This document shows, in pieces, positions 2,777 to 51,581 of a stretch of DNA of 64,000 bases (positions are counted from its first letter, which is position 1; every line of letters begins with the position of its first letter). Origin of the DNA: Gemmatimonadales bacterium (GTDB lineage: Bacteria > Gemmatimonadota > Gemmatimonadetes > Gemmatimonadales > GWC2-71-9); assembly GCA_035703525.1 (NCBI GenBank), contig DASSYA010000017.1, positions 171,304 to 235,303 of the forward strand, in the 5' to 3' direction. The position numbers and the translations under genes are program-made. The notes beneath the pieces were generated by a model that saw nothing but the letters and a program-made list of their open reading frames with translations, was not told where the DNA came from and did no database searches.

Positions 2777-2883
2777 ACGAGAAGTGAGAAGTGAGAAGTG
2801 AGAACGTCGAAGGCCGGCATCTGTTCCTGATGCCGGCCTTCTGCAGTCCGAGGACTTCTCACTTCTCACTTCTCACTTTTCCC
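2777..2883. repeat. heptad-repeat palindromic element 1: ACGAGAA+GTGAGAAx3, central GC hairpin, then TTCTCACx3+TTTTCCC
   Basis: Read directly and cross-checked against the translation of track ORF 2791..3042. Left array is 2777-2804 and right array 2856-2883. The arms are reverse complements and sit between the acnA stop (2774-2776) and the convergent sigma stop (2886-2888). Confidence 0.9.
2809..2841. terminator. bidirectional intrinsic-terminator-like hairpin
   Basis: Perfect 13-bp stem GAAGGCCGGCATC / GATGCCGGCCTTC with a 7-nt loop TGTTCCT, between two convergent stop codons. It is flanked by pyrimidine/T-containing heptads on both transcribed strands. Confidence 0.6.
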
Positions 2884-6986: not shown

Positions 6987-9494
6987 ATGGCCACTCGACC
7001 AGCGCGTCCATCGATCCACAAGTTCGGGGGTGCCGCGCTCAAGGACGCGGGGTCCATGCTGGCCGTGACCCGGATCCTGGCCGAGCAGCCCACCCCACAG
7101 ATCGTCGTGGTCTCCGCGCTCGCCGGGGTCACGGATGCGTTGCTCGATCTGATCGCGGTCGCTGAATCGGGCGACCAGTCGGGTGCCGTCGGGCGAGCGG
7201 ATGCATTCCGCGCTCGTCACGAATCCTTCCTCGCCGCCCTGCTCCCGGCCACCCGCCGGGCGCCGATCCAGGCCGCGATCACCGAGATGAGTGACGAGCT
7301 CGTCGGATTGGCGCGGGCGCTGGCGGTCCTCCGGGAGGCATCGCCGCGGCTCCGGGATCATATCGTGGCCCGGGGCGAGCGGTTGAGCGCCCTGCTGCTT
7401 GCCGGTGCGTTGAGTCGCGCTCGCCAACCGGCCGAAGCGGTCGACCCTGGCGCGGTGATCATCACTGACGGCCCCCATGGCGGCGCCGCCCCGGTGGTCG
7501 ACGCGACCAGACGCGCGGCCCGGGCCACGCTTGAGCCGATGCTCGCTCGCGGAGTGACGCCGGTGATCCCGGGATTCCTGGGCCGCGCGCCGGGCGGTGG
7601 TCTCGCCACCCTTGGACGCGGTGGTTCCGATCTGACGGCGACGTCGCTCGGTCGGGCGATGACGTCACCCCAGGTCACCCTCTGGAAGGATGTCCCGGGC
7701 CTGCTCACGGCCGACCCGCGGATCGTCCCGGATGCCCGGCTCCTCGAGTTGGTGCACCCCACCGAAGCCGCCGAGCTCGCCTATTACGGCGCCAACGTCC
7801 TGCACCCGCGGGCGCTGCTTCCGCTTGCGGGCACCCGGACGGCGCTCCGCGTCCGTCCCTTCGGTGATCCGACCGCACCGGGGACCGAGATCAGTGCACG
7901 GCGAGAGAGCGCCCCGCCCCCGGTACGCTCGTTGTCGGCCGTGCGCGACCAGGCGCTGGTCACGGTGTCGGGCTCGGGCATCCTTGGTGTGCCGGGCATG
8001 TCGGCCCGCACGTTCGGCGCGCTTCAGGCGGCCGACATTTCCGTCTCACTGATCGCCCAGGCCTCGTCGGAGTACACGATCGACTTCACGGTGCCCGACG
8101 AGGTCGCGGAGCATGCCGTGGAGGTCCTGCATCGTGCCTTCCGCGCGGAGATTGCCCACGGGGAGCTCGAGGCGGTCCGGACACGGCGTGGGGTCGCGAT
8201 CCTGGCGGTGGTCGGGCTCCGGATGGCCGGGCATCCGGGCATCGCCGCCCGCGTCTTCGAGGCGCTCGAGCTGGCCGAGGTGAACGTGGTGGCGATCGCC
8301 CAGGGGTCGTCGGAGCACAACATCTCGATCGTGGTGGACACCGGCGCGGTCCCGGCCGGTCTTCGCCGCATCCATGCCGCGTTCCAGCTCGGCAAGGAGG
8401 GGGGGGGACGCCCGCGGCGGCGGACCGGCAAGGATGTGGTGTTGCTGGGCGCCGGGACCATCGGACGGGCGACCCTCGAGATGCTCGCGGCCGCCCCGGC
8501 ACGGTTCGGGATGCTGCGCGTGGTGGCGGTGGTCGATCGGACGGGGATGGTCGCGGATGCGGGCGGCTTCGACCCGGTGGCCCTGCGCGCGATTGCGGCG
8601 TGCAAGCGGGCTGGGGGGGGGGTCGCCGGTCTCCCGGGCGGGGTGCGCGGCACGCCGGCGGCGGTCCTCGCCACCCTGGCCCAGCAGGCGCTGATCCGTC
8701 CCGTGATCGCGGACCTCACCGCGGATGACAGCACGGCACTGCTCACGATGGTGGCGCGCGCCGGATTCGATGTGGTGCTCGCCAACAAACGGCCGGTCGC
8801 GGGGCCGTGGACCGAGTACCGGGCACTCCGCGATGCCTTGGCCGCCCACGGGGGCCGACTCCGTCACGAGGCGACGGTGGGCGCCGGGCTGCCCCTCGTG
8901 CTGGCGGTGGACCAGTTGCTGCGCACGGGCGACCGGGTGCACCGGCTCGAGGGCGTGCTCTCGGGGACCCTGGCCGCAGTGCTGACCAGCCTTGAGGATG
9001 GGGTCCCCTTCTCCGAGGCCGTCCTGGCGGCCGAGTCCGCCGGGATGACCGAACCGGATCCGCGCGACGACCTGCACGGCACCGACGTGGCCCGCAAGGC
9101 GCTCATTCTCGCCCGCATGCTCGGACAGCATCGCGAACTCCATGAGGTCGCGACCGAATCCCTCGTGCGCGGCACGGGAGGCGGTACCATGGCAGCCTGG
9201 CGGAAGACGCTTGCCCGGGATGATGCCTGGTGGCAGGCGCGCGTGGTCAGGGCCCGCGACAAGGGGAAGGTGTTGCGATACGTCGCCTCGATCACGGCCA
9301 GCAAGACCGAGGTGGGCCTCCACGAGGTCCCTCACGACCATCCGCTCGGTCAACTGCGCGGTCCGTCGAACCGGTTGGTGATCACCTCGGACCGCTACCA
9401 CGCGCATCCACTGGTGATCACCGGTCCCGGGGCCGGTCCGGAGGTCACGGCGACCGGCGTCGTGGCGGACCTCCTCTCCCTGACGGGCGCATGA
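6987..9494 (+). CDS. thrA: bifunctional aspartate kinase / homoserine dehydrogenase
   Basis: 835 aa. N-terminal amino-acid kinase domain (IHKFGGAALKDAGS), ACT-like middle region, and C-terminal homoserine dehydrogenase (EATVGAGLPLV). Followed by thrB and thrC with ATGA overlaps. Confidence 0.92.
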   Translation: MATRPARPSIHKFGGAALKDAGSMLAVTRILAEQPTPQIVVVSALAGVTDALLDLIAVAESGDQSGAVGRADAFRARHESFLAALLPATRRAPIQAAITEMSDELVGLARALAVLREASPRLRDHIVARGERLSALLLAGALSRARQPAEAVDPGAVIITDGPHGGAAPVVDATRRAARATLEPMLARGVTPVIPGFLGRAPGGGLATLGRGGSDLTATSLGRAMTSPQVTLWKDVPGLLTADPRIVPDARLLELVHPTEAAELAYYGANVLHPRALLPLAGTRTALRVRPFGDPTAPGTEISARRESAPPPVRSLSAVRDQALVTVSGSGILGVPGMSARTFGALQAADISVSLIAQASSEYTIDFTVPDEVAEHAVEVLHRAFRAEIAHGELEAVRTRRGVAILAVVGLRMAGHPGIAARVFEALELAEVNVVAIAQGSSEHNISIVVDTGAVPAGLRRIHAAFQLGKEGGGRPRRRTGKDVVLLGAGTIGRATLEMLAAAPARFGMLRVVAVVDRTGMVADAGGFDPVALRAIAACKRAGGGVAGLPGGVRGTPAAVLATLAQQALIRPVIADLTADDSTALLTMVARAGFDVVLANKRPVAGPWTEYRALRDALAAHGGRLRHEATVGAGLPLVLAVDQLLRTGDRVHRLEGVLSGTLAAVLTSLEDGVPFSEAVLAAESAGMTEPDPRDDLHGTDVARKALILARMLGQHRELHEVATESLVRGTGGGTMAAWRKTLARDDAWWQARVVRARDKGKVLRYVASITASKTEVGLHEVPHDHPLGQLRGPSNRLVITSDRYHAHPLVITGPGAGPEVTATGVVADLLSLTGA

Positions 9495-18398: not shown

Positions 18399-19694
18399 TC
18401 AGGGGGCCGCGAGGTCGCTCGGCAGCCTCGGCGAAGCGAGCAATGACGCGAAGGCGCGCCACCGGGCAGTGGGATCGTCACCCCCCTCGCGCTGGACCCA
18501 ATCGGCCACCAGATCACGGCCGAGGTTGTAGTTGATCACATAGCTCCGGTAATCCTTGATGAACTGGAGGGTCTTGGCACCGGCGGCCGGACTCTGCAAC
18601 CAGTAGCGCTCCATGGCGGCGACGGCCTGGGTGCTGTCGATGTCGCCATCGAGGTAGCGACGCGCGACCTCGTTCCGGGCGTAGTTGAGGGCGGTGTTGA
18701 TGTCGCGAATCCTGGCGTTCTGCTCGGCGAGCGCCGGATCGAGGCCGGCGAGCGGAAAGAGCACATCACGCTCGAACGCGGTGCGCTCGTCACCGGGGAA
18801 CGCCATCTCGATCCCGAAGTTGGCGCTGCCCTCGGCGATGAGCGACTGCGGGGAGAAGAGCGGATAGACCGAGAACTCGACCCAGTCACGGTCCCGGACG
18901 AGTGCCTTCTCGAGCGAGGCATTGTAGACGTGATGCCCGGGATATCCCTCGTGGCACGCGAGATCGATCGCGCGATCAACGGCGATCGGGAAGTCCATGT
19001 TGACCTGGATCAGCGAATGCGAGTTGCCCTTGTACCAGTTGTAGGCATTCCACGACGTCCCCGTGACGTACTCGAGATCGAACTTCTCGCCGGCTGGCAG
19101 CGCGATGTGCGCGAGCGTCCGTTCGCGGCACGCGGCGATGGCGGTCTTGAAGACGGTGTCGACCAGCGCATTCGGGATCTCGACCCGTGTCCGGAACGCC
19201 TGATACCGTGCGGCAAGCGAACCCTGCCCCGGGACGAGCGTGTCGAGCTCGGCGAGCAGCGAATCGAAATGCGCGTCGGAGAGATGTGGTGGTGTCGCAT
19301 CGTAGAGGGCCTTCGCCTCCTGGTCGAACGAGAGTGTGGTCCCCTCGAGCATCCGGGCACGCGCGACCATCGAACCGAGCTGGGTACGGAGGTACCGATG
19401 CCGCATCGTGACGAGAGAATCATCGTAGGCCGGGACCGTGTCGCCCAGGATCACGATCAGCGAATCGGCCGACGTCCGGATCTGTGCCAGCGAGAGCGAA
19501 TCAGCGTCGGCCTGGACCTTGAGCGAGTCCGGGCCATAGTAGGCATCGACATAGGCCGGATCGTGGTGACCCATTTCCAGGGCGAGCACGACGTAGCGGG
19601 TGGCGATCGCGTCGAGGTCCGGACGGGCCGGCGCCGTGGGGGTGCACGCGGCAAAGGCGAGAATCGCGGCGACGTGACGGAACGTGGTGCGCAT
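18399..19694 (-). CDS. DUF885-like putative metallopeptidase lipoprotein
   Basis: MRTTFRHVAAILAFAACT lipoprotein signal and a HEGYPGHH motif resembling the DUF885 HExxPGHH signature. Start at ATG 19694, preceded by GGAGG 8 nt upstream. Confidence 0.5.
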   Translation of the reverse strand: MRTTFRHVAAILAFAACTPTAPARPDLDAIATRYVVLALEMGHHDPAYVDAYYGPDSLKVQADADSLSLAQIRTSADSLIVILGDTVPAYDDSLVTMRHRYLRTQLGSMVARARMLEGTTLSFDQEAKALYDATPPHLSDAHFDSLLAELDTLVPGQGSLAARYQAFRTRVEIPNALVDTVFKTAIAACRERTLAHIALPAGEKFDLEYVTGTSWNAYNWYKGNSHSLIQVNMDFPIAVDRAIDLACHEGYPGHHVYNASLEKALVRDRDWVEFSVYPLFSPQSLIAEGSANFGIEMAFPGDERTAFERDVLFPLAGLDPALAEQNARIRDINTALNYARNEVARRYLDGDIDSTQAVAAMERYWLQSPAAGAKTLQFIKDYRSYVINYNLGRDLVADWVQREGGDDPTARWRAFASLLASPRLPSDLAAP

Positions 19695-19724
19695 GGGTGG
19701 GCCTCCGGTTGGGACGACTGGCTC

Positions 19725-19856
19725 CAGGGGCGACCGCATTCAGGGGCGACCGCATTCAGGGGCGACCGTCAGGTCGCCCTCTGGATCATTGTAACAGGAA
19801 TCAGGCCCGACCGTGTTCAGGGGCGACCGCATTCAGGGGCGACCGTCAGGTCGCCC
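19725..19856. repeat. duplicated block of 16-nt direct repeats (CAGGGGCGACCGCATT) ending in hairpin GGGCGACC-GTCA-GGTCGCCC; 77-bp period
   Basis: Block A is 19725-19780 (16-mers at 19725, 19741 and 19757; hairpin at 19760-19779). Block B is 19802-19857 (16-mers at 19802 [degenerate], 19818 and 19834; hairpin at 19837-19856). Cross-checked against the translation of track ORF 19697..21148. Confidence 0.9.
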
Positions 19857-19879
19857 TCCGTATCCATGGCGGGATCCGG

Positions 19880-21115
19880 TCATTGGTCGTGCCGCACGAC
19901 CTGACGGTCGTGCCTGAAACATCGGTCATTGATCGTGCCAGAACGCCCCAACCCCGCCTCGATATCGGCCACGAGATCCTCGGCCGACTCGATCCCCACC
20001 GACAGCCGAAGCAACGAATCACTGATGCCCGCGAACGTGCGAGCCTCCGCGTCCATCGACGCGTGCGTCATGGTTGCCGGATGCGCCACCAGCGATTCGA
20101 CACCACCCAGCGACTCGGCCAACGTGAAGCATCGGAGTCCATCCAGGAAGTGCCGCACCGCGAGTTCCCCGCCCCGCAACTCGAACGAAACCATCGCCCC
20201 AAATCCGAGCTGCTGCCGGGCAGCGATCTCGTGACCGGGATGGCTCCGGAGTCCGGGATACCAGACGCGCTCGACGGCGGGATGCGCGCCCAGCGCGGCG
20301 ACCACCTCGACGGCGTTCTCCTCGTGGATCCTGGTGCGCGCGTGCAGCGTACGGATGCCGCGGAGCGTGAGGTAGCTGTCGAACGGCGCACCGGTCACAC
20401 CCAGGCAGTTGGCCCACCAGCCGAGCTCCTCGACCAGCGAGGCATCGCGGGCCACGACCGCGCCGCCCACCACGTCGCTGTGCCCATTGAGATACTTGGT
20501 CGTCGAATGCACGACGATGTCGGCACCGTGCTCGAGCGGTCGCTGCCACGCGGGCGACAGGAAGGTGTTGTCTGCCACAACCAGCGCACGGAGCGCATGA
20601 GCTTTCGCCGCAACCGCGCCGATGTCGGTGATCCTGAGCAACGGATTGCTCGGTGTCTCGATCCAGACCAGCCGCGGGCTTCGAGTGGCATCTCCGACTT
20701 CCGACTCCCGACTTCCGATTCCCTCCCCCGCGCCCCACGCACCGAGATCGACGAACTCCACGTCGAACAACCCCCGTCGACTGAGGTGCGTCAGCAGCCG
20801 ATGGGTGCCGCCGTAGCAATCGTGGGTGGCCAGGATCAGGTCACCCGGACGAACCAGCTGCAGCACCGTGGTGATCGCCGACATCCCGCTGCTCGTGATG
20901 ACGCCCCCACTCGCACCCTCGAGCTCCGCGATGGCTGCACCGAGCAGATCCCGCGTCGGGTTGCCCGAGCGCGTGTAGTCGTACGGTCGCTTGACACCGA
21001 ACCCTTCGAACGAGAAGGTCGACGAGAGATGGATCGGCGGGACCACCGCCCCGTGCTCGCGGTCGGAGCAGATGCCGGCACGGACGGCGTTGGTGACGCG
21101 GGGCTCACGCGGCAT
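19880..21115 (-). CDS. metB: cystathionine gamma-synthase / O-acylhomoserine-utilising PLP enzyme (MetB/MetZ family)
   Basis: Collinear with E. coli MetB as I remember it, with PLP-Lys motif [12 protein letters not shown] and C-terminal [12 protein letters not shown] 21115 overlaps the end of metX. MetB versus MetZ cannot be decided from sequence alone. Confidence 0.8.
20694..20721. repeat. intragenic heptad array CCGACTT-CCGACTC-CCGACTT-CCGATTC inside metB
   Basis: Coordinates derived codon by codon from the metB ORF. On the minus strand it is translated as [10 protein letters not shown]. Confidence 0.85.
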
Positions 21116-22016
21116 GGCGCACCTCGCTTTCGAGCGCGCGGTGGATGAACGCGCCGACCGACTCGACTTCCTTGAGGAAGCCATCGTGCCCGTAGATCGA
21201 TGACACGAGCTCGAGACGACATGCCGCAGTGCACTTCCGGGCCAGCTCCTCGAGCTGCCACGCCGGGACCAGCGTGTCCTCGTGGAAGCCGAGCAGGTCG
21301 AGCGGCACGGTGATCGCCGACGGGTCGACCTCGTGCAGGTCGAGTGATTCCGAGAGGGTCAGGTAGCGATCCGGCTCCCAGGTGGCGGCGAACCGCTGGC
21401 TGCCGTGATCGAGATAGCCTTCAACCGGGAATGCTCCCGAGGCCGTATCGCGCCCCGACTCGAATCGGGCCGCGAACTCCTCGGCCGTCCGGTAGGTGGT
21501 CATGCCGAGGGCACGGGCGAGTGCCACACCCTCGGTGGGGAGGCCGGCGGCGAGTCCGAGCCGGATGATCCGCCGCTGGATGACGCGGTGCGCCGTCGCC
21601 ATCGGATGGGTCTGATGCGCCGCCGCGATCACGACGAGGCGACCGACGCGCGTCGGATGACGTGCGGCGAACGCGAGCGCCACCATCCCGCCGTACGACG
21701 CGCCGACGATCGCATGGACCGCCTCACCGCCGAGCTCATCGAGGACGGTCGCGAGCTGATCGGCCTGATCGGTGGTCGTGACCGGTGCTCCGTCGGTGTG
21801 CCAGTCGATGCCGAGCACGCGCTGGCGTCTGGTGTCGACGGCGAGACCGGGACCGACGATGCCGTCCCACCAACCGGGCTGCGGATTGCTCTCGGTCTGG
21901 CAGAGATGGCGATGGGCGGAGATCCCGCCGAGCACCACCACGAGAGGGGCGTGCGGCGGGCCGGTGAGTTCCCAGGTCAGTGGTGTCGTGGGCGTGCGGG
22001 CAGTCGTGAGGGACAT
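21105..22016 (-). CDS. metX: homoserine O-acyltransferase (MetX family, short form)
   Basis: Alpha/beta hydrolase with MetX signatures PGWWDGIVGPGLAVDT, nucleophile elbow GASYGGM and C-terminal GHDGFLKE. Lies directly upstream of metB. Confidence 0.8.
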   Translation of the reverse strand: MSLTTARTPTTPLTWELTGPPHAPLVVVLGGISAHRHLCQTESNPQPGWWDGIVGPGLAVDTRRQRVLGIDWHTDGAPVTTTDQADQLATVLDELGGEAVHAIVGASYGGMVALAFAARHPTRVGRLVVIAAAHQTHPMATAHRVIQRRIIRLGLAAGLPTEGVALARALGMTTYRTAEEFAARFESGRDTASGAFPVEGYLDHGSQRFAATWEPDRYLTLSESLDLHEVDPSAITVPLDLLGFHEDTLVPAWQLEELARKCTAACRLELVSSIYGHDGFLKEVESVGAFIHRALESEVRHAA

Positions 22017-22110
22017 CGTGCGTCTCCGGCGGGTGAATGTTGCTCCACGACTCCCGGGCGGAAACGACGAACGCCCGGCGGCACGTGAAGGCCGCCAGGC
22101 GAGATACGCA
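22017..22110 (-). promoter_or_regulatory. structured 5' leader of metX-metB (candidate riboswitch/attenuator, class unknown)
   Basis: The minus-strand leader contains mutually exclusive helices: GCCTGGCGGC/GCCGCCGGGC versus CCGGGCG/CGCCCGG. The 5' segment GTGCGT..TCTC is complementary to the SD-start region GGAGACGCAC. Confidence 0.35.
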
Positions 22111-22139
22111 CTTTTAGCAGTTGTTTAACGTGGTTGCAA
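22111..22139 (-). promoter_or_regulatory. candidate sigma-70-type promoter of metX (TTGCAA-N17-TAAAAG on minus strand)
   Basis: The only AT-rich patch in this intergenic region. Hexamers lie at 22139..22134 and 22116..22111 with exactly 17-nt spacing. Confidence 0.45.
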
Positions 22140-22213
22140 GCAGCGGCAAATGACCACGGACTCCTTCGATTGTGACCGGAGGATAGATCCGGGGTTGGGC
22201 GTGGTCAAGGGAG

Positions 22214-22241
22214 GGATCGGACGTCGGAGGTCGGACGGCAG
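22214..22241. repeat. heptad array GGATCGG-ACGTCGG-AGGTCGG-ACGGCAG (left arm)
   Basis: Read directly and cross-checked with track ORF 22150..22794. It is complementary to the array at 22803-22837, with a 12-nt perfect core GTCGGAGGTCGG. Confidence 0.75.
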
Positions 22242-22309
22242 CTGCGTGGCCAGACGGTTCGGATCCAGGTCACCTATGATTCCCCGGCACCCCGTTCACG
22301 GAGCGGACC

Positions 22310-22783
22310 ATGATCCCCAGTCTCCCCACCCCTCTCGCCCCATGGGAACGGCGACTGATCCACGCCGCCTATCTCTTCGGGCTGGTGGTGGTCGGCCGCG
22401 TGGCAGCCGGCATCCTGAAGTGGATGCCGCCGGCCAGCGTCCTGATCGCACTCCAGCTCCTCGCCGCGGCAGGGGGCGTGATGTTCGTCTATCTCAGATG
22501 GTCTGCGCGTGGTCGAGCGGGTGCCCCACCGGCGTGGTTCGTGACACACGTCCTCTGGTTGATGATGTCGTTCCTCTATACCGTGGCCTGGGCGATCGGG
22601 ACGGCGGTATTCCTCTTCGGAGCCGTGGTGGTGGTCGCGACATTCCGCTCGCTCGCGGCACTGGCGGTGTATGGCCCGATCCTGGTGGCAGCCTTGATCG
22701 CGCTCTGGTTCATCTATCGAATGGTGCGGGGGTACCTGGATTACCTGCGAGAGTACCCGGCGGCGGAGATGTTGCCGCGCTGA
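22310..22783 (+). CDS. small integral membrane protein (4 predicted TM helices), function unknown
   Basis: The hydrophobic segment pattern is clear. GGAG lies 6 nt before ATG 22310. The alternative-frame 214-aa ORF (22150..22794) is Arg/Pro/Gly-rich and is rejected. Confidence 0.6.
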
Positions 22784-22802
22784 CGCCCGCGTAGATGCCG
22801 CC

Positions 22803-22837
22803 CCGACTTCCGACCGCCGACCTCCGACCGCCGACCT
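22803..22837. repeat. heptad array CCGACTT-CCGACCG-CCGACCT-CCGACCG-CCGACCT (right arm)
   Basis: Coordinates derived from the translation of track ORF 22274..22927 (...[13 protein letters not shown]...). It lies between the membrane-protein stop and the ettA start. Confidence 0.85.
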
Positions 22838-22856
22838 CCCGTTATCTTCCGCCCCC

Positions 22857-24533
22857 ATGGCCGGCGAATACATCTTCACGATGCGGGACCTCCGGAAGGT
22901 CGTCCCGCCCCAGCGCGAGATCCTCAAGGGGATCCACCTTTCCTTCTACCCGGGCGCCAAGATCGGCGTGATCGGGTCGAACGGCAGCGGCAAGTCGTCG
23001 CTCCTCAAGATCATGGCCGGAGTCGACACCGACTTCCTGGGCGAGGCGAAGCCGCTGGCGGGCACCCGGATCGGGTACCTCCCGCAGGAGCCGGTACTCG
23101 ATCCGACCAAGGATGTCCGCGGCAACGTCGAGGAGGCGCTCGCCCCCATCCGGGCGCTGCTCACCGAGTTCGAGGAGATCTCCGCGAAGTTCGCGGAACC
23201 GATGAGCGACGACGAGATGAACGCGCTGCTCGAGAAACAGGGCGCCGTGCAGGATCGGATTGACCAGGCCAACGCCTGGGAGATCGACCACACGCTCGAC
23301 ATGGCGATGGACGCCCTCCGGCTGCCGCCGGGCGATGCCGATGTCTCGACCCTCTCTGGCGGCGAAAAGCGGCGGGTGGCGCTTTGCCGGTTGTTGCTTG
23401 CCAAGCCCGAGATGCTGCTCCTCGACGAGCCGACCAATCACCTCGACGCCGAATCGGTGGCATGGCTCGAACGGTATCTGCAGGAGTTCACCGGCACCGT
23501 GGTGGCGATCACCCATGACCGCTACTTCCTCGACAACGCCGCGCAGTGGATCCTCGAGCTCGATCGGGGCGAGGGGATGCCGTACAAGGGCAACTACTCG
23601 AGCTGGCTCGACCAGAAGCAGCAGCGTCTCGCCACCGAGGAGAAGCAGGCCAGCGCTCGGCAACGCAACCTCCAACGCGAGTTGGAGTGGGTACGGCTGT
23701 CGGCGCGTGGCCGGCAGGCCAAGAGCAAGGCGCGCATCAACGCCTACGAGTCGCTGGTCGCGGCAGAGGAAAAGGCCGACAACCAGGGACACGAGATCCT
23801 GATCCCGCCGGCGCCGCGTCTGGGCGACGAAGTGGTGGTCGCCAAGAAGCTCGCCAAGGCGTACGGCGACAAGCTGCTGTTCGACAACCTCGAGTTCTCG
23901 CTGCCGCGTGGCGGCATCGTGGGCGTGATCGGTCCGAACGGCGCCGGCAAGACGACACTCTTCCGGATGATCGTGGGCCAGGAGACGCCCGACAGCGGCG
24001 AACTGGTGGTCGGTCAGACGGTGATCCCCTCGTATGTCGACCAGTCGCGCGAAGCGCTCGATCCGGAAAAGACGGTGTATCAGGAGATCGCCGGCGACTA
24101 CGACAACCTGCAGTTCGGCACCCGGACCGTGAACTCACGCGCCTATTGCGGGTGGTTCGGGTTCAAGGGCTCGGACCAGCAGAAGAAGGTCGGGACGATG
24201 TCGGGCGGCGAGCGCAATCGACTCCACCTCGCGAAGCTGCTCAAGACGGGTGGCAACCTGCTGATGCTCGACGAACCGACCAACGATCTGGACGTCGACA
24301 CCCTTCGCGCCCTCGAGGACGCGCTGCTGACCTTCTCGGGCTGCGCGGTGGTGATCTCGCACGATCGCTGGTTCCTCGACCGGATCGCGACGCACATCCT
24401 CGCGTTCGAGGGCGATTCGGAGACGGTCTGGTTCGAGGGGAACTATCAGGACTATTCCGCGGACTACAAGCGCCGGAAGGGCGTCGCGGTCGACCAGCCG
24501 CACCGGATCAAGTACCGGAAGCTGCCGACCTGA
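22857..24533 (+). CDS. ettA: energy-dependent translational throttle protein EttA (ABC-F ATPase)
   Basis: 558 aa with two ABC cassettes: Walker [10 protein letters not shown] and GPNGAGKTT, signatures LSGGEKRR and MSGGERNR. The N-terminus [18 protein letters not shown] is typical of EttA. Confidence 0.93.
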
Positions 24534-24536
24534 TAC

Positions 24537-24689
24537 GTGAGAAGCGAGAAGCGAGAAGTGAGAAGCGAGAAGTGAGAAGCGAGAAGTGAGACGCAGGAAC
24601 TCGGACGTCCACAGCGGATGGGTGTCGCAGCATCCGGAGCTTCTCGCTTCTCGCTTCTCGCTTCTCGCTTCTCACTTCTCGCTTCTCAC
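24537..24689. repeat. heptad-repeat palindromic element 2: (GYGAGAA)x8, 48-nt spacer, (TTCTCRC)x7
   Basis: Left array is 24537-24592 and right array 24641-24689. Cross-checked with track ORF 23546..24589 (...REKREARSEKREVRSEK*). It starts 3 nt after the ettA stop. Confidence 0.9.
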
Positions 24690-24721
24690 GCGTTTGTTCC
24701 AGACTCCATTGGAGGATTCCC

Positions 24722-26380
24722 GTGCGCTTCCTGATCCTCGGCGCCGCGCTCGTTGCCGCCCCGCTCGCCACCACCGCCCAGACGCCCCGCGTCTTCGGCC
24801 ATGCCGACACCCTGCGCGGATCGAACGGCCCCGGGCGGGCGTGGTGGGATGCCACCTTCTATGACTTGCACGTGACGGTCAACCCCGCGGACAGCAGCGT
24901 CGGAGGCCGGAACGGCATCACCTACGAGGTCCTCGGGCGGGCCACCGAGATGCAGATCGACCTGCAGATGCCGCTCGCGGTGGACAGCATGGTCCAGGAG
25001 GGCCGCCCCCTCGTGTATCGCCGCGATGGCAACGCCTACTTCGTGACGCTCACCGCCCCACAACCGCTCGGCTCCCGCCAGACGGTCACGGTGTACTACC
25101 ATGGCAGCTTCGGGGGGGGGAGCACCACGCCCGGTCGCCGCTCGGGGCCGTTTACCTGGGCCACCGACAGCAGCGGCGCGCCCTGGTTCGCGACGGCCAA
25201 CGAAGGGCCGGGCGCCAGCACCTGGTGGCCGCTCAAGGACTTTGCGGCCGACGAGCCGGACAGCCAGCGGATCGCCATCACCGTGCCGGATCCGTTGATC
25301 AATGTCTCCAACGGTCGGCTGCGCTCGACGACCCACAACACCGATGGCACCACCACCTTCGAGTGGTTCGTCGCCAATCCGATCAACAGCTACAATGTCG
25401 CCATCAACGCGAGCCCCAACTATGTGCCGGTGCGGAGCGAGTATCTCGGGCTCCGGGGCCCCCTGACGATCGAGTTCTGGGCGCTGGCCTCGCACCGGGC
25501 CAACGCAGAGGCGCTCATCCCCGAGGTCAAGACGATGCTCGCGTGCTTCGAGCACTGGTTTGGCCCCTACCCCTGGTACCAGGATGGCTACAAGCTGATC
25601 GAGGTGCCCTACCTCGGCATGGAGCACCAGAGCGGGATCGCCTACGGCAACCAGTATCTCCGAGGCTACCTCGGGCGTGATCTGTCGAAGACCGGCGAAG
25701 GGATGAGCTGGGACTACATCGTGGTGCACGAGAGCGCCCACGAATGGTTCGGCAATAACATCAGTGCCAAGGACCATGCCGACATGTGGATCCACGAGAG
25801 CTTCGGCATGTACGCCGAGGCACTGTACCTCGAATGCACTGAGGGGAAGGAGGCCGGCGTCAACTACCTGGTCGGCGTGCGCTCCAGCATGATCAGGAAC
25901 GACACACCGATCATCGGCCAGTACGGTGTGCAGGATGTCCCTCGCTCGCAGGACCGATACCCCAAGGGCGCCAACATGCTGATGACCATGCGGGCCGTGG
26001 TAGGCGATGACACCACATGGCTCGCGACGCTCCGGGGACTCAACCAGACCTTCTGGCACCAGACCGTGACCGCGAAGCAGATCCGCGACTACATGAGCGC
26101 CTCGACGGGCGTCGACCTCAACCCGATCTTCGTGCAGTATCAGGAGACGATCAAGATCCCGGCACTCGAGTACAAGCTCGGGAACGGGTCACTCTCCTAC
26201 CGGTGGACCAATGTCGTGCCGGGATTCACCATGCCGGTCGATGTGATGGTCGGGAACCAGAGGGTGACCCGCCTTGCTCCGACCGAGCAGTGGCAGTCGA
26301 TGCCGGTCACGACCGCGGCCGGGGCGTCACTAGCCGTGATACCGGAGTACTACGTGACAACCCAGCGGGTGGAGGACTAG
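24722..26380 (+). CDS. secreted M1-family zinc aminopeptidase
   Basis: Signal peptide, GMEHQ (GAMEN-like) exopeptidase motif, and HESAHEWFGN...E zinc motif. GGAGGA lies 5 nt before GTG 24722. Confidence 0.85.
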   Translation: MRFLILGAALVAAPLATTAQTPRVFGHADTLRGSNGPGRAWWDATFYDLHVTVNPADSSVGGRNGITYEVLGRATEMQIDLQMPLAVDSMVQEGRPLVYRRDGNAYFVTLTAPQPLGSRQTVTVYYHGSFGGGSTTPGRRSGPFTWATDSSGAPWFATANEGPGASTWWPLKDFAADEPDSQRIAITVPDPLINVSNGRLRSTTHNTDGTTTFEWFVANPINSYNVAINASPNYVPVRSEYLGLRGPLTIEFWALASHRANAEALIPEVKTMLACFEHWFGPYPWYQDGYKLIEVPYLGMEHQSGIAYGNQYLRGYLGRDLSKTGEGMSWDYIVVHESAHEWFGNNISAKDHADMWIHESFGMYAEALYLECTEGKEAGVNYLVGVRSSMIRNDTPIIGQYGVQDVPRSQDRYPKGANMLMTMRAVVGDDTTWLATLRGLNQTFWHQTVTAKQIRDYMSASTGVDLNPIFVQYQETIKIPALEYKLGNGSLSYRWTNVVPGFTMPVDVMVGNQRVTRLAPTEQWQSMPVTTAAGASLAVIPEYYVTTQRVED

Positions 26381-26392
26381 GGGGCGAACGGC

Positions 26393-27067
26393 ATGGCCAC
26401 CGATGCGCCGGTCGGACCTGGATCGGCGGGGCCGGGATCGCACGCGCATGTCCTCCTCGTTCACGGCCTCGGGCGCACCCCGGGGTCACTGGCCTCGCTG
26501 GGTTGGGCGCTACGGCGCGAGGGGTACCCCGTGCACCAGCTGGGGTACGTTGCCGCGTTCGAATCCGTGGATCGCATCATCGGGCGGGTCAGGGACCGCC
26601 TGGAGGAGCTGAGCGCAACGCAGGTACCGCTGGTTGTCATCGGCCATTCGCTCGGTGGCATCCTCGTCCGCGCCGCCCTCGCCGAGGCCGACACACGCGC
26701 GATCCGCGTCGACCATCTCATCATGCTCGGGCCACCGAACCGGCCGCCGCGTCTCGCTCGACGACTGCAACGCAACTGGCTCTATCGCATCGTCAACGGC
26801 GATGCCGGTCAGCGACTCGCCGACCCGGGGTTCCTCGATTCGCTGCCGCCACTCACCATCCCGCACACCATCATCGCCGGTACAGGCGGGCCGACGGGCC
26901 GGTGGAGTCCCTTCGGCGGCGATCCGAATGACATGATCGTGGCGGTCGACGAGACGCACTGCACGAACGATGAGCCCGTCATCCAGTTGCCGGTTCGACA
27001 TACATTCATGATGAACGATCCGCGGGTTCGGGCCGTGATCACCGGCGTACTCGCGCAGGTCGACTGA
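26393..27067 (+). CDS. alpha/beta hydrolase (lipase/esterase-like)
   Basis: HVLLVHGLG oxyanion region and GHSLGG nucleophile elbow. Confidence 0.65.
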   Translation: MATDAPVGPGSAGPGSHAHVLLVHGLGRTPGSLASLGWALRREGYPVHQLGYVAAFESVDRIIGRVRDRLEELSATQVPLVVIGHSLGGILVRAALAEADTRAIRVDHLIMLGPPNRPPRLARRLQRNWLYRIVNGDAGQRLADPGFLDSLPPLTIPHTIIAGTGGPTGRWSPFGGDPNDMIVAVDETHCTNDEPVIQLPVRHTFMMNDPRVRAVITGVLAQVD

Positions 27068-27107
27068 CCACGATCATGCCGAGCAACACTGCACGCAAGG
27101 AGTCACC

Positions 27108-27641
27108 ATGTCGGACGCCGGATCGACGCCTCCCCATTCCGCCACTCATCCCTTCCGTGACCGGTTGTACCAGCTCTGGCCCGGACGCGAACCGGTGGCA
27201 CGCGACATCAATGCCGAGGTCGAGCGACGTTCGACCCTGGGCGATCGCCTTGCCGACCGGATCGCCGGCTTCGGCGGTTCCTGGCCGTTCATCATCATCT
27301 TCCTCGCCTTCCTCGCGATCTGGACCTACCTCAACACCGCGATCCTGGGGCCGCGGCACGAGGCGTTCGACCCCTACCCGTACGTCTTCCTCAATCTCTT
27401 CCTGTCGATGATCGCCGCACTCCAGGCACCGGTCATCCTGATGTCACAGAACCGGCAGTCCGAACGTGATCGACTCGCGGCCGCCAACGACTTCGAGGTG
27501 AATGTGCGGGCCGAGCTGGCGATCCGGGCGTTGCACGAGCAGGTCGAGGTCATGAGGATGGAGCAGATGGCACTCCTCAGGGAGCTGGTGGAGTCACGGG
27601 ATGGCTCCGGGTCCGCGAAGGGGAAGACGCATGGCGCATAG
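27108..27641 (+). CDS. DUF1003 family membrane protein
   Basis: GSWPFIIIFLAFLAIWTYLN...FDPYPYVFLNLFLSMIAALQAPVILMSQNRQ matches my memory of DUF1003. AAGGAG SD is present. Confidence 0.65.
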   Translation: MSDAGSTPPHSATHPFRDRLYQLWPGREPVARDINAEVERRSTLGDRLADRIAGFGGSWPFIIIFLAFLAIWTYLNTAILGPRHEAFDPYPYVFLNLFLSMIAALQAPVILMSQNRQSERDRLAAANDFEVNVRAELAIRALHEQVEVMRMEQMALLRELVESRDGSGSAKGKTHGA

Positions 27642-28083
27642 TCTCCATGATCCTGCCCTCGTCGCGTCACTCCACGGCCGACTCGACGCGCTCCGGGCCG
27701 ACAGCCCCAGGCAGTGGGGCACGATGACGGTCCAGCAGATGTTGGCGCACTGCGCGCGCGGGGCCGAGATGGCACTCGGCGACCGGACGCCGCCACGAAT
27801 CCTCATGGGCCGGCTGCTCGGCCCGCTCGTCAAGCGGATGATCCTCAAGGACGACTCGCCGATGATGCGGAACGCGCCGACCGCGCCCTCACTCGTGGTC
27901 GCCGACCAACCGCAACTCGATGCCGAGCGCACGCGACTCCACGTCCTGATTGATCGATTCGCCTCGGGACCAGCGGCATGCACCACGCATCCCCATCCGT
28001 TCTTCGGGACCATGACGCCTGACGAGTGGGGCATCCTGGCCTACAAGCATCTTGACCACCACTTGCGGCAGTTCGGGGTCTGA
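27631..28083 (+). CDS. DinB-like / DUF1569 family protein
   Basis: C-terminal HPFFGTMTPDEWGILAYKHLDHHLRQFG is typical of DUF1569. Start set at the internal ATG 27631 (MAHSLHD...). Confidence 0.6.
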   Translation: MAHSLHDPALVASLHGRLDALRADSPRQWGTMTVQQMLAHCARGAEMALGDRTPPRILMGRLLGPLVKRMILKDDSPMMRNAPTAPSLVVADQPQLDAERTRLHVLIDRFASGPAACTTHPHPFFGTMTPDEWGILAYKHLDHHLRQFGV

Positions 28084-28085
28084 CG

Positions 28086-28775
28086 ATGCGCGATGCCCGG
28101 TCCGGTGCCCGGACACGATCGCCCGCGCGCCCGCGTGCCCTGGTGCTCGCCCTTCTGCTCACCATCCCTGCACTCAGCCCGTGCACCGTCCGTGGACAGG
28201 ATGTCCAGTTCGGGGTCGGTGGGGCGGCGATCGTCCAGGCGGGAGACGGTGTCGGCGTGGAGTGCGACAGCCGCAACTACCGGCTCGCCCTCGGCGCAGA
28301 TCTGTCGGCTCGACTCCCCGTGACCGGACTCCGGATTGCGGCGACCGGGCGGTACTTCGGCGTCTCGCCCTCTCCCGGGTGTGTCACCGACCCGTTCGTC
28401 CCGCGTGATGGTGTCCATACCTTCGATGATCACGTTGCGCTGGAGAGCAGTGCGTTTGGCACGACCGATCTGCGACTCGACGTTGCGCCACTGCCGCGAC
28501 TTGTGGTGTCCGGCGGCGGGGGCATCGCCTGGCGCGGGAAGCAGCGGGGTCGGAACGCTCCCTACCTCCTTGCCGGAGTGGCCACGATGCTGCCCGGGCC
28601 GGATCGGATCCGGTTCCGCCTCGGGCTTGAGGTGACCTGGTTCCGGTTCGTCCACAACCGGAGCGAGGTCACCTTTGCGAACTACATCCCGATCGAGGTC
28701 GTCGAGCTTGGCGAGCGTCATTCCTGGGATCGCGCCGTGCTGCTCACTGCCGCCGCGCGGTTTCCCATCCCGTAG
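28086..28775 (+). CDS. hypothetical secreted/outer-membrane protein
   Basis: N-terminal signal-like region (ALVLALLLTIPALSP) and an alternating beta-strand-like pattern. No family recognised. Confidence 0.4.
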   Translation: MRDARSGARTRSPARPRALVLALLLTIPALSPCTVRGQDVQFGVGGAAIVQAGDGVGVECDSRNYRLALGADLSARLPVTGLRIAATGRYFGVSPSPGCVTDPFVPRDGVHTFDDHVALESSAFGTTDLRLDVAPLPRLVVSGGGGIAWRGKQRGRNAPYLLAGVATMLPGPDRIRFRLGLEVTWFRFVHNRSEVTFANYIPIEVVELGERHSWDRAVLLTAAARFPIP

Positions 28776-28918
28776 CGATGTCATTCATGCAGGGCAGATC
28801 ATCTCCCACCGACGCTCCGCAGCGGTTCCATCATCGTCGGGTCCTGCCCGGACGGTGTCACACCATGCGTAGTTTGCCCCTGCACCGCGTTCCTGTCTCC
28901 CCCGATCGGAGTTGTTCG

Positions 28919-30286
28919 ATGTCCGCCATCGCCCGCCTCATGACCATCGCCGTCCTCGTCGTGACCCCGTGTCTCCCGCTCACGGGCCAGGCCTGGCCGA
29001 GCGAGTCCGCGATCCGCGCCATGATCACGGCCCCGGTCGACAGCGGCTTCTACGCGGGGATCGCGGTGGGACTCGTCGCGCGCGATGGCACACGGCGCGT
29101 GGTGACCTACGGACCGCACGCCGGCGTGACCCCATTCGATGGCTCGACCGTGTTCGAGATCGCCTCGATCACCAAGACCTTCGCCGCCGCCATCCTCGCC
29201 GATATGGTCACGAAGGGTGAAGTGGCGCTCGACGACCCGGTGGTGAAGCATCTGCCGCCCGGCACGACGGTGCCCAGCCGTGGTGGTCGCGAGATCACGC
29301 TCCTCGACCTGGCGACCCAGACGTCGGGATTGCCGCGGCTCCCGGGCAACCTCGTGATCAGCGACTCGACGAACCCCTACGCGGACTACACGATCGCCGA
29401 CCTCGATGCCTTCCTCGCCCGCTATACGCTGCCGCGTGACATCGGCGCGAGCTACGAATACTCGAACCTCGGATTCGGGCTGCTCGGGCGAGCGCTCACG
29501 CACCGTGCAGGGACCGATTTCGAGACGATGGTGCGTCAACGCATCCTCACCCCACTCGGCATGAACGACACACGCATCGCCCTCACGCCGGAGATGAGAC
29601 GACGCCTCGCGCCGGGACATGCGGAGAACGGCACAGTCACGGCGAACTGGGACTTCCCCTCCCTGCCAGCGGCGGGTGCGCTGCGCTCGACCATCGATGA
29701 CATGCTGACCTACATCCACGCCAACGCCGACTCGACGTCAACGCCTCTCGGGCCGACACTGGCCATGACGCATTCGGCACGCAGGCCCGCCGGCTCCCCT
29801 GCGATGCAGATCGGCCTGGCATGGAACCGGGTCCGGGCACCTGCAGGTCACACCATCGTCTGGCACAACGGCGGAAGCGGGGGGTATCGCTCATTCACCG
29901 GCTACGACGAGGCCACCGGACTCGGTGTGGTCGTGCTCACCAACACCTCCCGCAGCGTCGACGAGATGGGCATGCACCTGCTCGACTCGCTCGTGCCGCT
30001 GCCCACGCTCCGGAAGGCCGTCTCGCTCCCGATCGAGGAGCTCGCGCAGTATGTCGGCACCTACGAGATCCAGCCTGGCGTGGTGTTCACGATCACCCGG
30101 GAGAGCAGCCAGCTGATGGCACAGATCACCGGACAGCCCGCCAACCCGATCTACCCGAGCGGCCCCGGGGAGTTCTTCTATACTGTGGTCGATGCGACAC
30201 TCTCGTTCCAGCGCGACAGCGCAGGAGCCGTGACCGGCCTCGTCCTGCACCAGGGCGCCCTGACCGTGCCGGCGAAGCGGAAGTAA
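28919..30286 (+). CDS. serine hydrolase, beta-lactamase/PBP-related (class C-like) with extra C-terminal domain
   Basis: SxxK motif FEIASITKTF and a YxN-like YSN motif, plus a signal peptide. GGAG lies 7 nt before ATG 28919. The track ORF start at 28778 is rejected. Confidence 0.8.
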   Translation: MSAIARLMTIAVLVVTPCLPLTGQAWPSESAIRAMITAPVDSGFYAGIAVGLVARDGTRRVVTYGPHAGVTPFDGSTVFEIASITKTFAAAILADMVTKGEVALDDPVVKHLPPGTTVPSRGGREITLLDLATQTSGLPRLPGNLVISDSTNPYADYTIADLDAFLARYTLPRDIGASYEYSNLGFGLLGRALTHRAGTDFETMVRQRILTPLGMNDTRIALTPEMRRRLAPGHAENGTVTANWDFPSLPAAGALRSTIDDMLTYIHANADSTSTPLGPTLAMTHSARRPAGSPAMQIGLAWNRVRAPAGHTIVWHNGGSGGYRSFTGYDEATGLGVVVLTNTSRSVDEMGMHLLDSLVPLPTLRKAVSLPIEELAQYVGTYEIQPGVVFTITRESSQLMAQITGQPANPIYPSGPGEFFYTVVDATLSFQRDSAGAVTGLVLHQGALTVPAKRK

Positions 30287-50312: not shown

Positions 50313-50546
50313 ACGAGAAACGAGAAGCGAGAAGCGAGAAGCGAGAAACGAGAAACGAGAAACGAGAAGCGAGAGACGAGACGAGACGAGAAACGAGAAA
50401 CGGGAGACGGGAGACGAGAGACGGGAGACGGGAGACGGGAGACGGGAGACGCGAGCAAGGTAATGGAACGTGTTTGGAGACAGGCGTCACGCTTCTCGCT
50501 TCTCACTTCTCATTTCTCGCTTCTCGCTTCTCGCTTCTCGCTTCTC
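50313..50546. repeat. heptad-repeat palindromic element 3 (expanded, asymmetric): 19 heptads + 2 pentamers, AT-richer spacer, 8 heptads
   Basis: Left array is 50313-50455 (ACGAGAA/GCGAGAA, then ACGGGAG variants). Right array is 50491-50546 (GCTTCTC/ACTTCTC/ATTTCTC). Verified against the translation of track ORF 50306..50572. The right array runs into the TAA stop (50550-50552) of the upstream minus-strand gene. Confidence 0.92.
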
Positions 50547-50549
50547 GCT

Positions 50550-51581
50550 TTACAGCCCTGCCCGCACAATAATCCGATACGACAGCTCCCACGGCGTCCC
50601 GAAGAACGCCTCGCTCTGTTCACTGTCGATCCGATGGAATCGCACTTCGGTGTCGAACGAGACGCCCGTGCTGGCGTCGCCGAAGCGGCGCCATGCACCG
50701 AGTTCGGTGTACCGGCGCTCGGCACGGTAGACGCCCGGCGTATGCCCCACGGAGCCGTAGTTGGCATCCCCGGCGGCGGCCGCGAAGTCCTGACCTCGCC
50801 AATGGATCACGAAGAGCGCCCAGAGTGGCCACGGATTCACCTCACCACGAAGCCATGTCCCCGACCCGCCGCGCGGTTGGTCGGTCGGGTAGGCCGGGTC
50901 GAGGTGCCCGTCGCTCCAGAGTCTCGCCGCCTGGACGCTGCCGTGCCGGACGATCGGGAGCGAACCTGACAAGGTCGCACCGAGTGCCGTGACGCGGTTG
51001 TTGGTCACCGGGACACCGGCATCGAACAACTGCCCGCCGTGATGCGACCAGAGGTGTTGGGCGTCGATGCTGAGGCCGCGCACCGGACGAACGCGTGCAA
51101 CGATGCCCATCTCGAACGCCTCACGCTGCGCCGGTGTATTCAGTCGCTGCCAGTTGATCCACGCCTCGGCGTCGAGCCGTTCGCGGCGTTCGCGCCACTG
51201 CAGGCCATACTCGATCGGCGTCGTGAGCTCGCGTGTGCTGACCATCAGTGGGTCAATGAGGCCGTGTCGACGCGTGTTCTCGAGGGTGCCGATCACACCC
51301 AGGGAATGCGGGGTCGTGTAGCGGGCGGCGAGGATCGGCTTGAGCGAGTCGGTGAACTCCTCGCTGCCCCAGCGACGGTCGGCGAAGACGCCCAGGCGGA
51401 GCGCCAGGTGACCGGTCGCCTGCCCGGAGATCCAGCCCTGCACCTGTCCACCGAGAATCGTCTCGCCGACACGGTACGGGGTGAAGAATTCGGTGTTGTC
51501 GCCGTAGAGCGTGGCGCGGAGCTGCCAGTCGATCCGCTGTGCGCCGAGGATGGGGCACGCGAGGGCCAGCAGGAGGATCAC
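50550..51581 (-). CDS. hypothetical secreted protein
   Basis: The only in-frame start near the hydrophobic N-terminus is GTG 51581 (M-ILLLALACPILGAQ). No family recognised. The start is uncertain. Confidence 0.4.
   Translation of the reverse strand: MILLLALACPILGAQRIDWQLRATLYGDNTEFFTPYRVGETILGGQVQGWISGQATGHLALRLGVFADRRWGSEEFTDSLKPILAARYTTPHSLGVIGTLENTRRHGLIDPLMVSTRELTTPIEYGLQWRERRERLDAEAWINWQRLNTPAQREAFEMGIVARVRPVRGLSIDAQHLWSHHGGQLFDAGVPVTNNRVTALGATLSGSLPIVRHGSVQAARLWSDGHLDPAYPTDQPRGGSGTWLRGEVNPWPLWALFVIHWRGQDFAAAAGDANYGSVGHTPGVYRAERRYTELGAWRRFGDASTGVSFDTEVRFHRIDSEQSEAFFGTPWELSYRIIVRAGL

Follow-up and report, generated by a model that had tools for sequence, protein, structure and literature searches.

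The gap between an ettA-like gene and the peptidase gene that follows it in a soil Gemmatimonadales bacterium is occupied over its whole length by an inverted pair of heptanucleotide arrays. The pair belongs to a dispersed class, found shortly after stop codons, in which the purine/G-rich arm is nearly always the 5′ one. We have very little doubt as to the make-up of the element: two arrays of simple sequence repeats (SSRs) in inverted orientation around a core that is not conserved. It is real, highly non-random and evolutionarily labile, as well as ordinary for its class, and it has no role specific to ettA. The architecture is the same as that of the Xanthomonas heptanucleotide repeats, an already described class, found here in a distant phylum.

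Anatomy of the heptad pair between ettA and the peptidase gene

Table 1. Heptad arrays and neighbouring genes in the window, i.e. the whole 64-kb stretch of DNA that was analysed
Feature	Position	Strand	Remarks
G-rich heptad array, TCGGAGG/TCGGACG	22217..22237	+	5′ partner; 19 nt, 89% complementary to 22809-22827
C-rich heptad array, CCGACCT/CCGACCG	22803..22839	+	between 157-aa ORF and ettA
ABC-F (EttA-like) gene, 558-aa ORF	22857..24533	+	TGA stop 24531-24533; 3 nt upstream of the element
Left (5′) arm, 8 purine-rich GYGAGAA heptads	24537..24592	+	84% purine
Core, 48 nt	24593..24640	+	small stem CGGATG 24616-24621 / CATCCG 24630-24635
Right (3′) arm, 7 pyrimidine-rich TTCTCRC heptads	24641..24689	+	complement of the left arm
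Peptidase leader, 32 nt	24690..24721	+	GCGTTTGTT immediately 3′ of the stem; GGAGGA Shine-Dalgarno 24711-24716
M1-family peptidase gene, GTG start	24722..26380	+	Pfam Peptidase_M1
Member 1: GAGAAGT x3.7, core, ACTTCTC x3.6	2779..2878	.	core with its own GC hairpin
Member 3: mixed left arm of ~20 copies, 34-nt core, CGCTTCT x8.7	50313..50550	.	

The upstream gene encodes an EttA-like protein (two Pfam ABC_tran domains, 1e-51, and ABC_tran_Xtn) with 97% amino acid identity to its orthologue in the related locus L002. Its TGA stop is joined to the left arm by the linker TAC; the element lies 3 nt from the ettA stop, as compared with 32 nt from the peptidase start. The left arm reads GTGAGAA, GCGAGAA, GCGAGAA, GTGAGAA, GCGAGAA, GTGAGAA, GCGAGAA and GTGAGAC, the eighth unit being degenerate. 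In the right arm four TTCTCGC units are followed by TTCTCAC, TTCTCGC and TTCTCAC, and the motif TTTGTT starts 3 nt past the end of the stem. A first-pass annotation of this DNA had described the layout of 8 units, a 48-nt core, 7 units, a Shine-Dalgarno sequence and a GTG start, and on re-reading of the sequence all of it was borne out, coordinates included. The same annotation had the Y position of the unit alternating between C and T, which is not what the arms contain: the order is T C C T C T C T in the left arm and G G G G A G A in the right one.

Tandem Repeats Finder (TRF) reported period 7 for both arms, with 7.6 copies and 89% matches on the left and 7.0 copies and 95% matches on the right. 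An inverted-repeat finder delimited arms of 51 nt (24536-24586 and 24640-24690), 94% complementary and 53 nt apart. For the string GAGAAGYGAGAAG, at most one mismatch being allowed, the window contains 31 occurrences where 0.07 would be expected, and 31 of the 31 fall within three loci. The RNA fold of the element has an energy of -121.2 kcal/mol versus -77.4 +/- 4.6 kcal/mol for shuffled sequences (z = -9.6); for single-stranded DNA the energy is -67.5 kcal/mol (z = -10.9). Window positions 24660-29380 are reproduced with 0 mismatches in an independent Logan assembly (SRR25158252), therefore the element is real rather than an artefact of assembly; the Logan contig breaks inside the right arm, its first base being 24660.

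At the Rfam gathering threshold no family was found at 24537-24689, the sole match in the window being SAM_alpha at 22094-22167. A scan of 22000-27500 gave no sigma-70-like promoter for the + strand, Gemmatimonadota promoters being outside the models of the scan, and called no canonical intrinsic terminator (a hairpin with a U tract) at the element. Such terminators have short GC-rich stems and loops of 3-8 nt; the stem here exceeds 50 bp and has a centre of 48 nt. The array is outside any ORF and, with promoters of this phylum again beyond the models used, no recognisable -35/-10 hexamers were seen around it. The unit, written in another register as GAGAAGY, has no GG, and four or more runs of three or more G, by which a G-quadruplex is recognised, are absent; thus no G-quadruplex is possible.

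Turnover at the orthologous junction

Orthologues of the peptidase define a set of related loci (L002-L081) and place the window in Gemmatimonadales. The ettA gene is kept upstream of the peptidase gene in 2 of the 80 related loci, L002 and L003, and in both of them a minus-strand gene of 187 aa stands between the two. After the ettA stop the window has TGATAC, 8 heptads, the 48-nt core and 7 heptads; L003, a related MAG, has TGATAC, GTGAGAA x3, an unrelated core of ~50 nt and TTTCTCG x4. The junction of TGATAC with GTGAGAA is identical in the two. The L003 pair sits between convergent genes, and the stop codon of the 187-aa gene is within the outermost unit of the right arm. What follows the ettA stop in L002 is a different, REP-like palindrome (AGGGGCGACCGTGAGGTCGCCC...), with edges GCGTGAAG ... 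CTTCTTCACACGC that are one-unit heptad remnants. The DNA flanking the junction has 79-91% identity to the window; unit number and core at this fixed site change much faster than the surrounding sequence.

As L003 carries 3+4 units and another core at the same junction, copy number and core turn over in place. A comparison of copy number at the orthologous junction had been proposed in the first-pass annotation, with copy-number invariance named beforehand as part of the outcome that would count against its reading; the numbers vary (3+4 versus 8+7 units), and invariance is contradicted by L003. A look-up of the exact EttA-like protein for strain-level variants returned no record.

The element was also said to separate two co-directional genes. 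It does so in this genome; in L002 and L003 the minus-strand gene intervenes, so the co-directional setting is particular to the window. Since purine-rich arrays normally follow a gene on the same strand (see below), the window lineage has probably lost an intervening minus-strand gene that was once followed by the right arm, the alternative order being a gain in L002 and L003. Through such a loss the heptad pair would have become the whole of the ettA-peptidase spacer. The 157-aa ORF upstream of ettA, considered as a relocated copy of the 187-aa gene of L002 and L003, proved unrelated to it (BLASTP E = 0.18).

Around this 157-aa ORF the arrays at 22217-22235 and 22803-22839 pair with each other, and L002 is without both of them and without the ORF, other repeats occupying the gap. 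Both arrays by which ettA had been described as bracketed are indeed present; the bracketing is incidental, given that the upstream array pairs with 22217-22235 and is absent from L002. We rejected an ettA-specific role for the heptads, as ettA of L002 has no heptad arrays on either side.

Distribution, polarity and placement of heptad pairs

GAGAAGY pairs were found at three loci in the 64-kb window. Member 1 is separated by 2 and 7 nt from the aconitase and sigma-70 genes that converge on it, and member 3 (left-arm units ACGAGAA, GCGAGAA and GACGGGA) lies between two minus-strand genes; a lone heptad array is in frame within metY. The genes neighbouring the pairs are functionally unrelated (aconitase, sigma factor, ettA, peptidase, kinase). 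When the cores of five copies (three from the window, one each from L003 and L063) were aligned, they were no more alike than shuffled sequences, in agreement with the earlier statement that the arms, not the core, are the conserved feature. At the three window copies there were no target-site duplications (CTGATAC/GCGTTTG, GTAGAC/TTCCCC and TTGGCTT/TACAGCC), and the copies share no conserved palindromic unit of 20-40 nt of the REP/REPIN kind, only the heptad being common to them. No transposase or RAYT gene was seen among the few flanking genes scanned.

TRF detected 69 period-7 arrays in 27 of 81 Gemmatimonadales sources (1.29 Mb); among the higher-scoring arrays whose period is not divisible by three, 7 and 14 are conspicuous. 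Many of these arrays form inverted pairs with other units, namely GAGCTGN in L005 and L007, GACGGCG in L017, GATGGAA in L023, CGAGAAG in L063 and GGAGAAC in L069. Arrays begin 2-7 nt past stop codons and often occupy the whole intergenic gap; the pairs upstream of the peptidase gene in L005 and L007 are, as judged by eye, between divergent genes. Arms are frequently unequal, e.g. 3.3 versus 7.0 copies in L063, which argues that pairing is not tightly maintained. The 17 period-7 arrays within 8.8 kb of one contig, L273, are built of many different units, which contradicts one uniform unit per genome as a general rule. The idea that units were chosen to provide stops in three frames fits GTGAGAA and GAGCTGA and was rejected, since GCGAGAA, GACGGCG, GATGGAA and GGAGAAC are without a stop.

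Three GAGAAGY units in tandem were found in at least 120 metagenome contigs, whose GC content lies between 31% and 72%, and a complementary arm within 300 nt in 23 contigs among the matches listed. The mirror-image control, GAAGAGT x3, was present in 55 contigs of a viral collection versus 16 for GAGAAGT. We therefore rejected GAGAAGT as a special universal motif: the mirror unit is the commoner one in the viral collection, and other Gemmatimonadales use other units. The first-pass annotation had recognised a family of heptad arms, correctly for the members in the window; the family extends beyond this genome, being present in other Gemmatimonadales, in metagenomic contigs and, in published work, in Xanthomonas.

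Pairs are also situated between rpsE, rpmD and rplO, ahead of secY (the S5-L30-L15-SecY operon), and another one separates the alpha and beta subunit genes of a 2-oxoacid:ferredoxin oxidoreductase. In L017 and L023 pairs are in frame within a dnaE2-type polymerase gene, in a surface loop that in homologues measures 3 aa at its shortest and, as peptide coded by heptads, more than 40 aa at its longest. Read-through of such pairs is tolerated, and their presence in an operon for ribosomal proteins and in the reading frame of dnaE2 makes efficient termination of any kind unlikely. For the in-frame dnaE2 pairs and the divergent cases of L005 and L007 a function at 3′ ends is inapplicable.

The order of the arms is strongly biased. 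The purine/G-rich arm was the 5′ one, rather than the pyrimidine-rich arm, in 14 versus 0 Gemmatimonadales pairs, in 21 versus 2 pairs of metagenome contigs among the matches listed and, for GAGAAGT and the control GAAGAGT taken together, in 14 versus 0 pairs of the viral collection, making 49 of 51 in the three sets pooled (the metagenome part being among the matches listed). Context statistics were obtained with crude gene calls (GC3 and ORF length). For 173 lone arrays, oriented with the purine-rich strand as +, the 5′ gene within 40 nt was on the + strand in 80 cases and on the - strand in 10; the ratio becomes 80:29 if 19 minus-strand ORFs that span an array are all counted against the same-strand rule. 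Pairs were found in convergent (12), tandem (9) and divergent (1) contexts, against a background of 33 convergent, 109 tandem and 31 divergent adjacent gene pairs in the same loci.

Folding does not tell the two strands apart. At the ettA element the energies are about equal (-112.1 versus -108.7 kcal/mol), and when both strands of 12 pairs were folded in search of an asymmetry from G.U over A.C pairing the differences were small and inconsistent; in three clearly tandem pairs the sense strand folds slightly better, too few cases to count. As both strands fold about equally well, the sequence is silent on whether RNA or DNA is the relevant form.

Known heptad repeats and candidate explanations

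The closest published parallel is that of the GGGAATC repeats of Xanthomonas (Rehm et al. 2015, PMC4692102), with about 185 arrays per genome, ~90% of them intergenic, and 70-75 inverted pairs per genome 'in convergent orientation'. They lie on average 28 nt from the 5′-neighbouring ORF, are rare between divergent genes, vary across related species and are mostly transcribed; experiments found no function for them (PMC4692102). For these repeats and the heptameric GGGGAYT SSRs of Nostoc, with 2 to >20 copies, a G-quadruplex/i-motif idea was proposed (PMC4692102). The arrays described here are like them in having tandem 7-nt units and convergent arrays able to form stem-loops, in lying nearer to the 5′-neighbouring ORF, in being rare between divergent genes and in varying in length and sequence at the same gene pair. 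The differences are the GAGAAGY unit without G tracts, to which the G-quadruplex/i-motif idea is inapplicable, the occurrence in Gemmatimonadota and the long arms (8 and 7 units) that occupy an entire intergenic gap.

Other heptamer families are known from Beggiatoaceae, where TAACTGA repeats form 169 direct sets and one indirect set and an RNA-binding factor was proposed (PMC4679880), and from Geobacter metallireducens (GGGACCG and MTYCTGA; PMC2700814). Together with the cyanobacterial STRR, these families resemble ours as genome-wide non-coding tandem heptanucleotides, often near ORF boundaries; theirs are mostly direct and upstream of starts, whereas we see an inverted pair after a stop. 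In a literature search we found no GAGAAGT array strings in a bacterial context and no link between Gemmatimonadota and heptanucleotide repeats.

The REP, BIME and REPIN sequences of enterobacteria and pseudomonads are extragenic palindromes located at 3′ ends of genes and inside operons; REP hairpins are transcribed, protect the upstream mRNA and modulate expression within operons. What REPs have in common is a conserved, imperfectly palindromic unit of 20-40 nt and a link with RAYT transposases, in contrast to a mere 7-nt unit in free copy number here. Rickettsia palindromic elements (RPEs) recall the in-frame relatives of this element, in the DnaE2 loop of L017 and L023 and in metY; RPEs are mobile elements of 100-150 bp with conserved sequence, whereas the present arrays consist of simple sequence and vary in unit as well as in length.

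We are evenly balanced on a combined reading, by which a slippage-driven SSR pair, once transcribed, functions as a 3′ hairpin of the REP kind or as a partial attenuator. The REP-like 3′ hairpin role by itself, drawn by analogy, we put forward tentatively, as something short of an even chance. In the combined reading the arms would lengthen and shorten by slipped-strand mispairing, fairly independently of each other, as the often unequal arm lengths suggest, and the core would be replaced over time like the centres of long palindromes. Transcribed from ettA, the pair would fold into a hairpin of ~60 bp, which would form a barrier to 3′ exonucleases and partially block RNA polymerase. A portion of the ettA message would then be stabilised or ended and the remainder would read through into the peptidase gene, whose expression may well depend on such read-through, since a promoter of its own does not fit into the 32-nt leader. 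The hairpin could in this way let the levels of the ettA message and of the peptidase vary independently.

The main alternative, conceivable if rather doubtful, is that the arrays are a pure mutational by-product with no function, accumulating through 7-nt slippage made frequent in these genomes by a replication or repair process, wherever they are tolerated, i.e. in 3′ intergenic DNA and permissive protein loops, and doing nothing for ettA or the peptidase. The quick turnover of units, copy numbers and cores among close relatives would be expected on this account, as would arrays in frame in metY and the dnaE2 loop, 17 arrays of diverse units in 8.8 kb of one contig, the often unequal arms and the Xanthomonas experiments that found no function (PMC4692102). 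Undirected slippage does not predict, however, a polarity of 49/51 (with the metagenome part among the matches listed) or a placement of 80:10; to explain these a strand-asymmetric mechanism or selection is needed. Besides, a hairpin of about -110 kcal/mol situated 32 nt upstream of a start is unlikely, if transcribed, to be without consequence. An efficient bidirectional intrinsic terminator, in which the pyrimidine-rich 3′ arm would give a weak RNA:DNA hybrid in either direction, would account for the start 3 nt past the stop codon, the enrichment of pairs between convergent genes, the pyrimidine-rich arm being 3′ on both strands in nearly all pairs, the TTTGTT 3 nt past the stem and the GC-rich inner hairpin of member 1. 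We consider it quite unlikely: no canonical hairpin with a U tract was found at the element by the scan, the 32 nt up to the peptidase start are too few for a promoter, and the scan detected none, pairs are present inside the S5-L30-L15-SecY operon, between oxidoreductase subunits and in the dnaE2 reading frame, and C-rich 3′ arms, e.g. CGCCGTC in L017, would not form weak hybrids.

A binding array for a trans-acting factor that regulates neighbouring genes, be it an RNA-binding protein (CsrA-, S1- or CspA-like) or a DNA-binding one, with a phase-variable spacer setting peptidase expression as a variant, is in our estimate very unlikely. One unit does recur at several loci of the genome, placement at ORF ends is strict with a strong strand rule, and a comparable proposal exists for the TAACTGA repeats of Beggiatoaceae (PMC4679880). 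Still, units differ widely among related genomes and even within one contig, the mirror control unit is at least as frequent (55 versus 16 viral-collection contigs), the neighbouring genes are unrelated in function and no candidate factor was identified; the array is in no ORF and, by the promoter models of the scan, not between recognisable hexamers. That we deal with a mobile palindromic element of MITE or REPIN kind, with heptads as terminal inverted repeats and spread by a transposase such as RAYT, seems to us extremely improbable, even with one unit at three unlinked loci in 64 kb, gene content differing between the window and L002 exactly at repeat-bearing intergenic sites, the 157-aa ORF flanked by inverted heptad arrays and in-frame dnaE2 copies reminiscent of Rickettsia RPEs. 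The cores are at shuffled-level similarity and target-site duplications are missing; copy number in the arms varies and the arms are often unequal; at the orthologous site the left junction is identical and yet the core and the number of units differ; the dnaE2 loop lengths form a continuum rather than empty and filled states; and no transposase was found beside any copy among the few flanking genes scanned.

The observations set constraints on any explanation of the class, namely the purine-first order in 49 of 51 pairs (with the metagenome part among the matches listed) and the 80:10 preference of lone arrays for the position after same-strand stops. A Xanthomonas-type layout with a unit that makes no quadruplex removes the sole structural hypothesis proposed for the class. 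Heptad arrays break short-read assemblies, as seen from the Logan contig that ends in the arm, and are therefore likely to be under-represented in MAGs.

One could speculate further, and we regard this as a long shot, that heptad pairs are the footprint of one directional process operating across bacterial phyla and coupled to the end of translation or transcription, e.g. polymerase slippage and strand switching provoked by R-loops or triplexes on pyrimidine-rich templates. Such a process would be distinct from random slippage with subsequent filtering; in lineages rich in heptads, the present one included, it would place arrays in coding loops as well, those of the imuB-dnaE2 mutasome genes among them. 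As seven is not a multiple of three, changes in copy number could switch a reading frame on and off; if the directional process is real, arrays in these genes might reversibly turn error-prone repair on and off.

Repeat-bearing sites that separate the window from its closest relative

Between positions 16572 and 37234 of the window, all synteny breaks relative to the closest relative, L002, in which ettA is likewise kept upstream of the peptidase gene, were found at repeat-bearing intergenic sites (see table), where genes present in one genome are missing from the other. The entire block upstream of ettA that carries a membrane-like ORF is absent from L002; other repeats occupy the site there. 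Inverted heptad arrays of 19 nt with 89% complementarity (22217-22235 and 22809-22827) border this ORF, for which a Pfam search returned no match.

The repeats are not all heptads. We observed a second family, made of 16-nt tandem units (CAGGGGCGACCGCATT) with a terminal REP-like hairpin, GGGGCGACCGTCAGGTCGCCC; the motif of this hairpin makes up a long palindrome at the ettA 3' site of L002.

Coordinates of repeats, genes and other features in the window and in other loci
Feature	Location	Details
Synteny-break sites vs L002	window 19652-19866, 22174-22840, 24529-24711, 27054-28956
Second repeat family, distinct from heptads	window 19725-19846; L002:9150-9255
metY-like gene (Cys_Met_Meta_PP)	window ORF 19880-21184	minus strand
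Heptad array TCCGACT x4.4	window 20693-20723	30 nt, in frame within metY-like gene
SAM_alpha (SAM-II) riboswitch match	window 22094-22167	minus strand; Rfam
Membrane-like ORF	window 22310-22783	157 aa; within block 22217-22839
Heptad palindrome, unit GACGGCG	L017:3689-3799	in frame, DnaE2/ImuC-like polymerase, 37 aa
Heptad palindrome, units GATGGAA/GATCGAA	L023:2416-2481	in frame, DnaE2/ImuC-like polymerase, 22 aa
GAGAAGT heptad palindromes	L103:6050-6383 (JFJP01022119.1, 48% GC)	ribosomal-protein operon

The metX-like/metY-like operon

The metY-like gene contains a heptad array coding for a peptide (given as 11 letters) immediately ahead of the ETPSNP motif. A SAM_alpha match scoring 40.9 bits (Rfam gathering score 36; E = 8.8e-6) lies 78 nt upstream of the operon that this gene forms with the metX-like gene (21105-22016), and its sequence is kept in L002 at ∼7180-7255. 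The family takes its name from Alphaproteobacteria; the match reported here is in a Gemmatimonadales genome.

Heptads in other operons and in polymerase genes

In the metagenome contig L103, GAGAAGT palindromes fill two consecutive intergenic gaps, rpsE/rpmD and rpmD/rplO, and further palindromes of this unit are present elsewhere on the contig.

Two Gemmatimonadales loci, L017 and L023, carry palindromes of different units at an identical site, a PHP-domain loop of the DnaE2/ImuC-like polymerase, whose gene adjoins an imuB-like gene in both. Among homologues the length of this loop ranges from 3 aa ('GEH') to a heptad-coded peptide of >40 aa. Over 8.8 kb of ENA contig_38906 (L273:1-8805) we counted 17 period-7 arrays, which are built from a wide variety of units and lie for the most part within imuB-like and dnaE2 coding sequence; dnaE2 was called there as four ORFs, a split in which frameshifts at the arrays are indistinguishable from errors of long-read assembly. 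The heptad arrays in the DnaE2/ImuC-like loop could be phase-variable.
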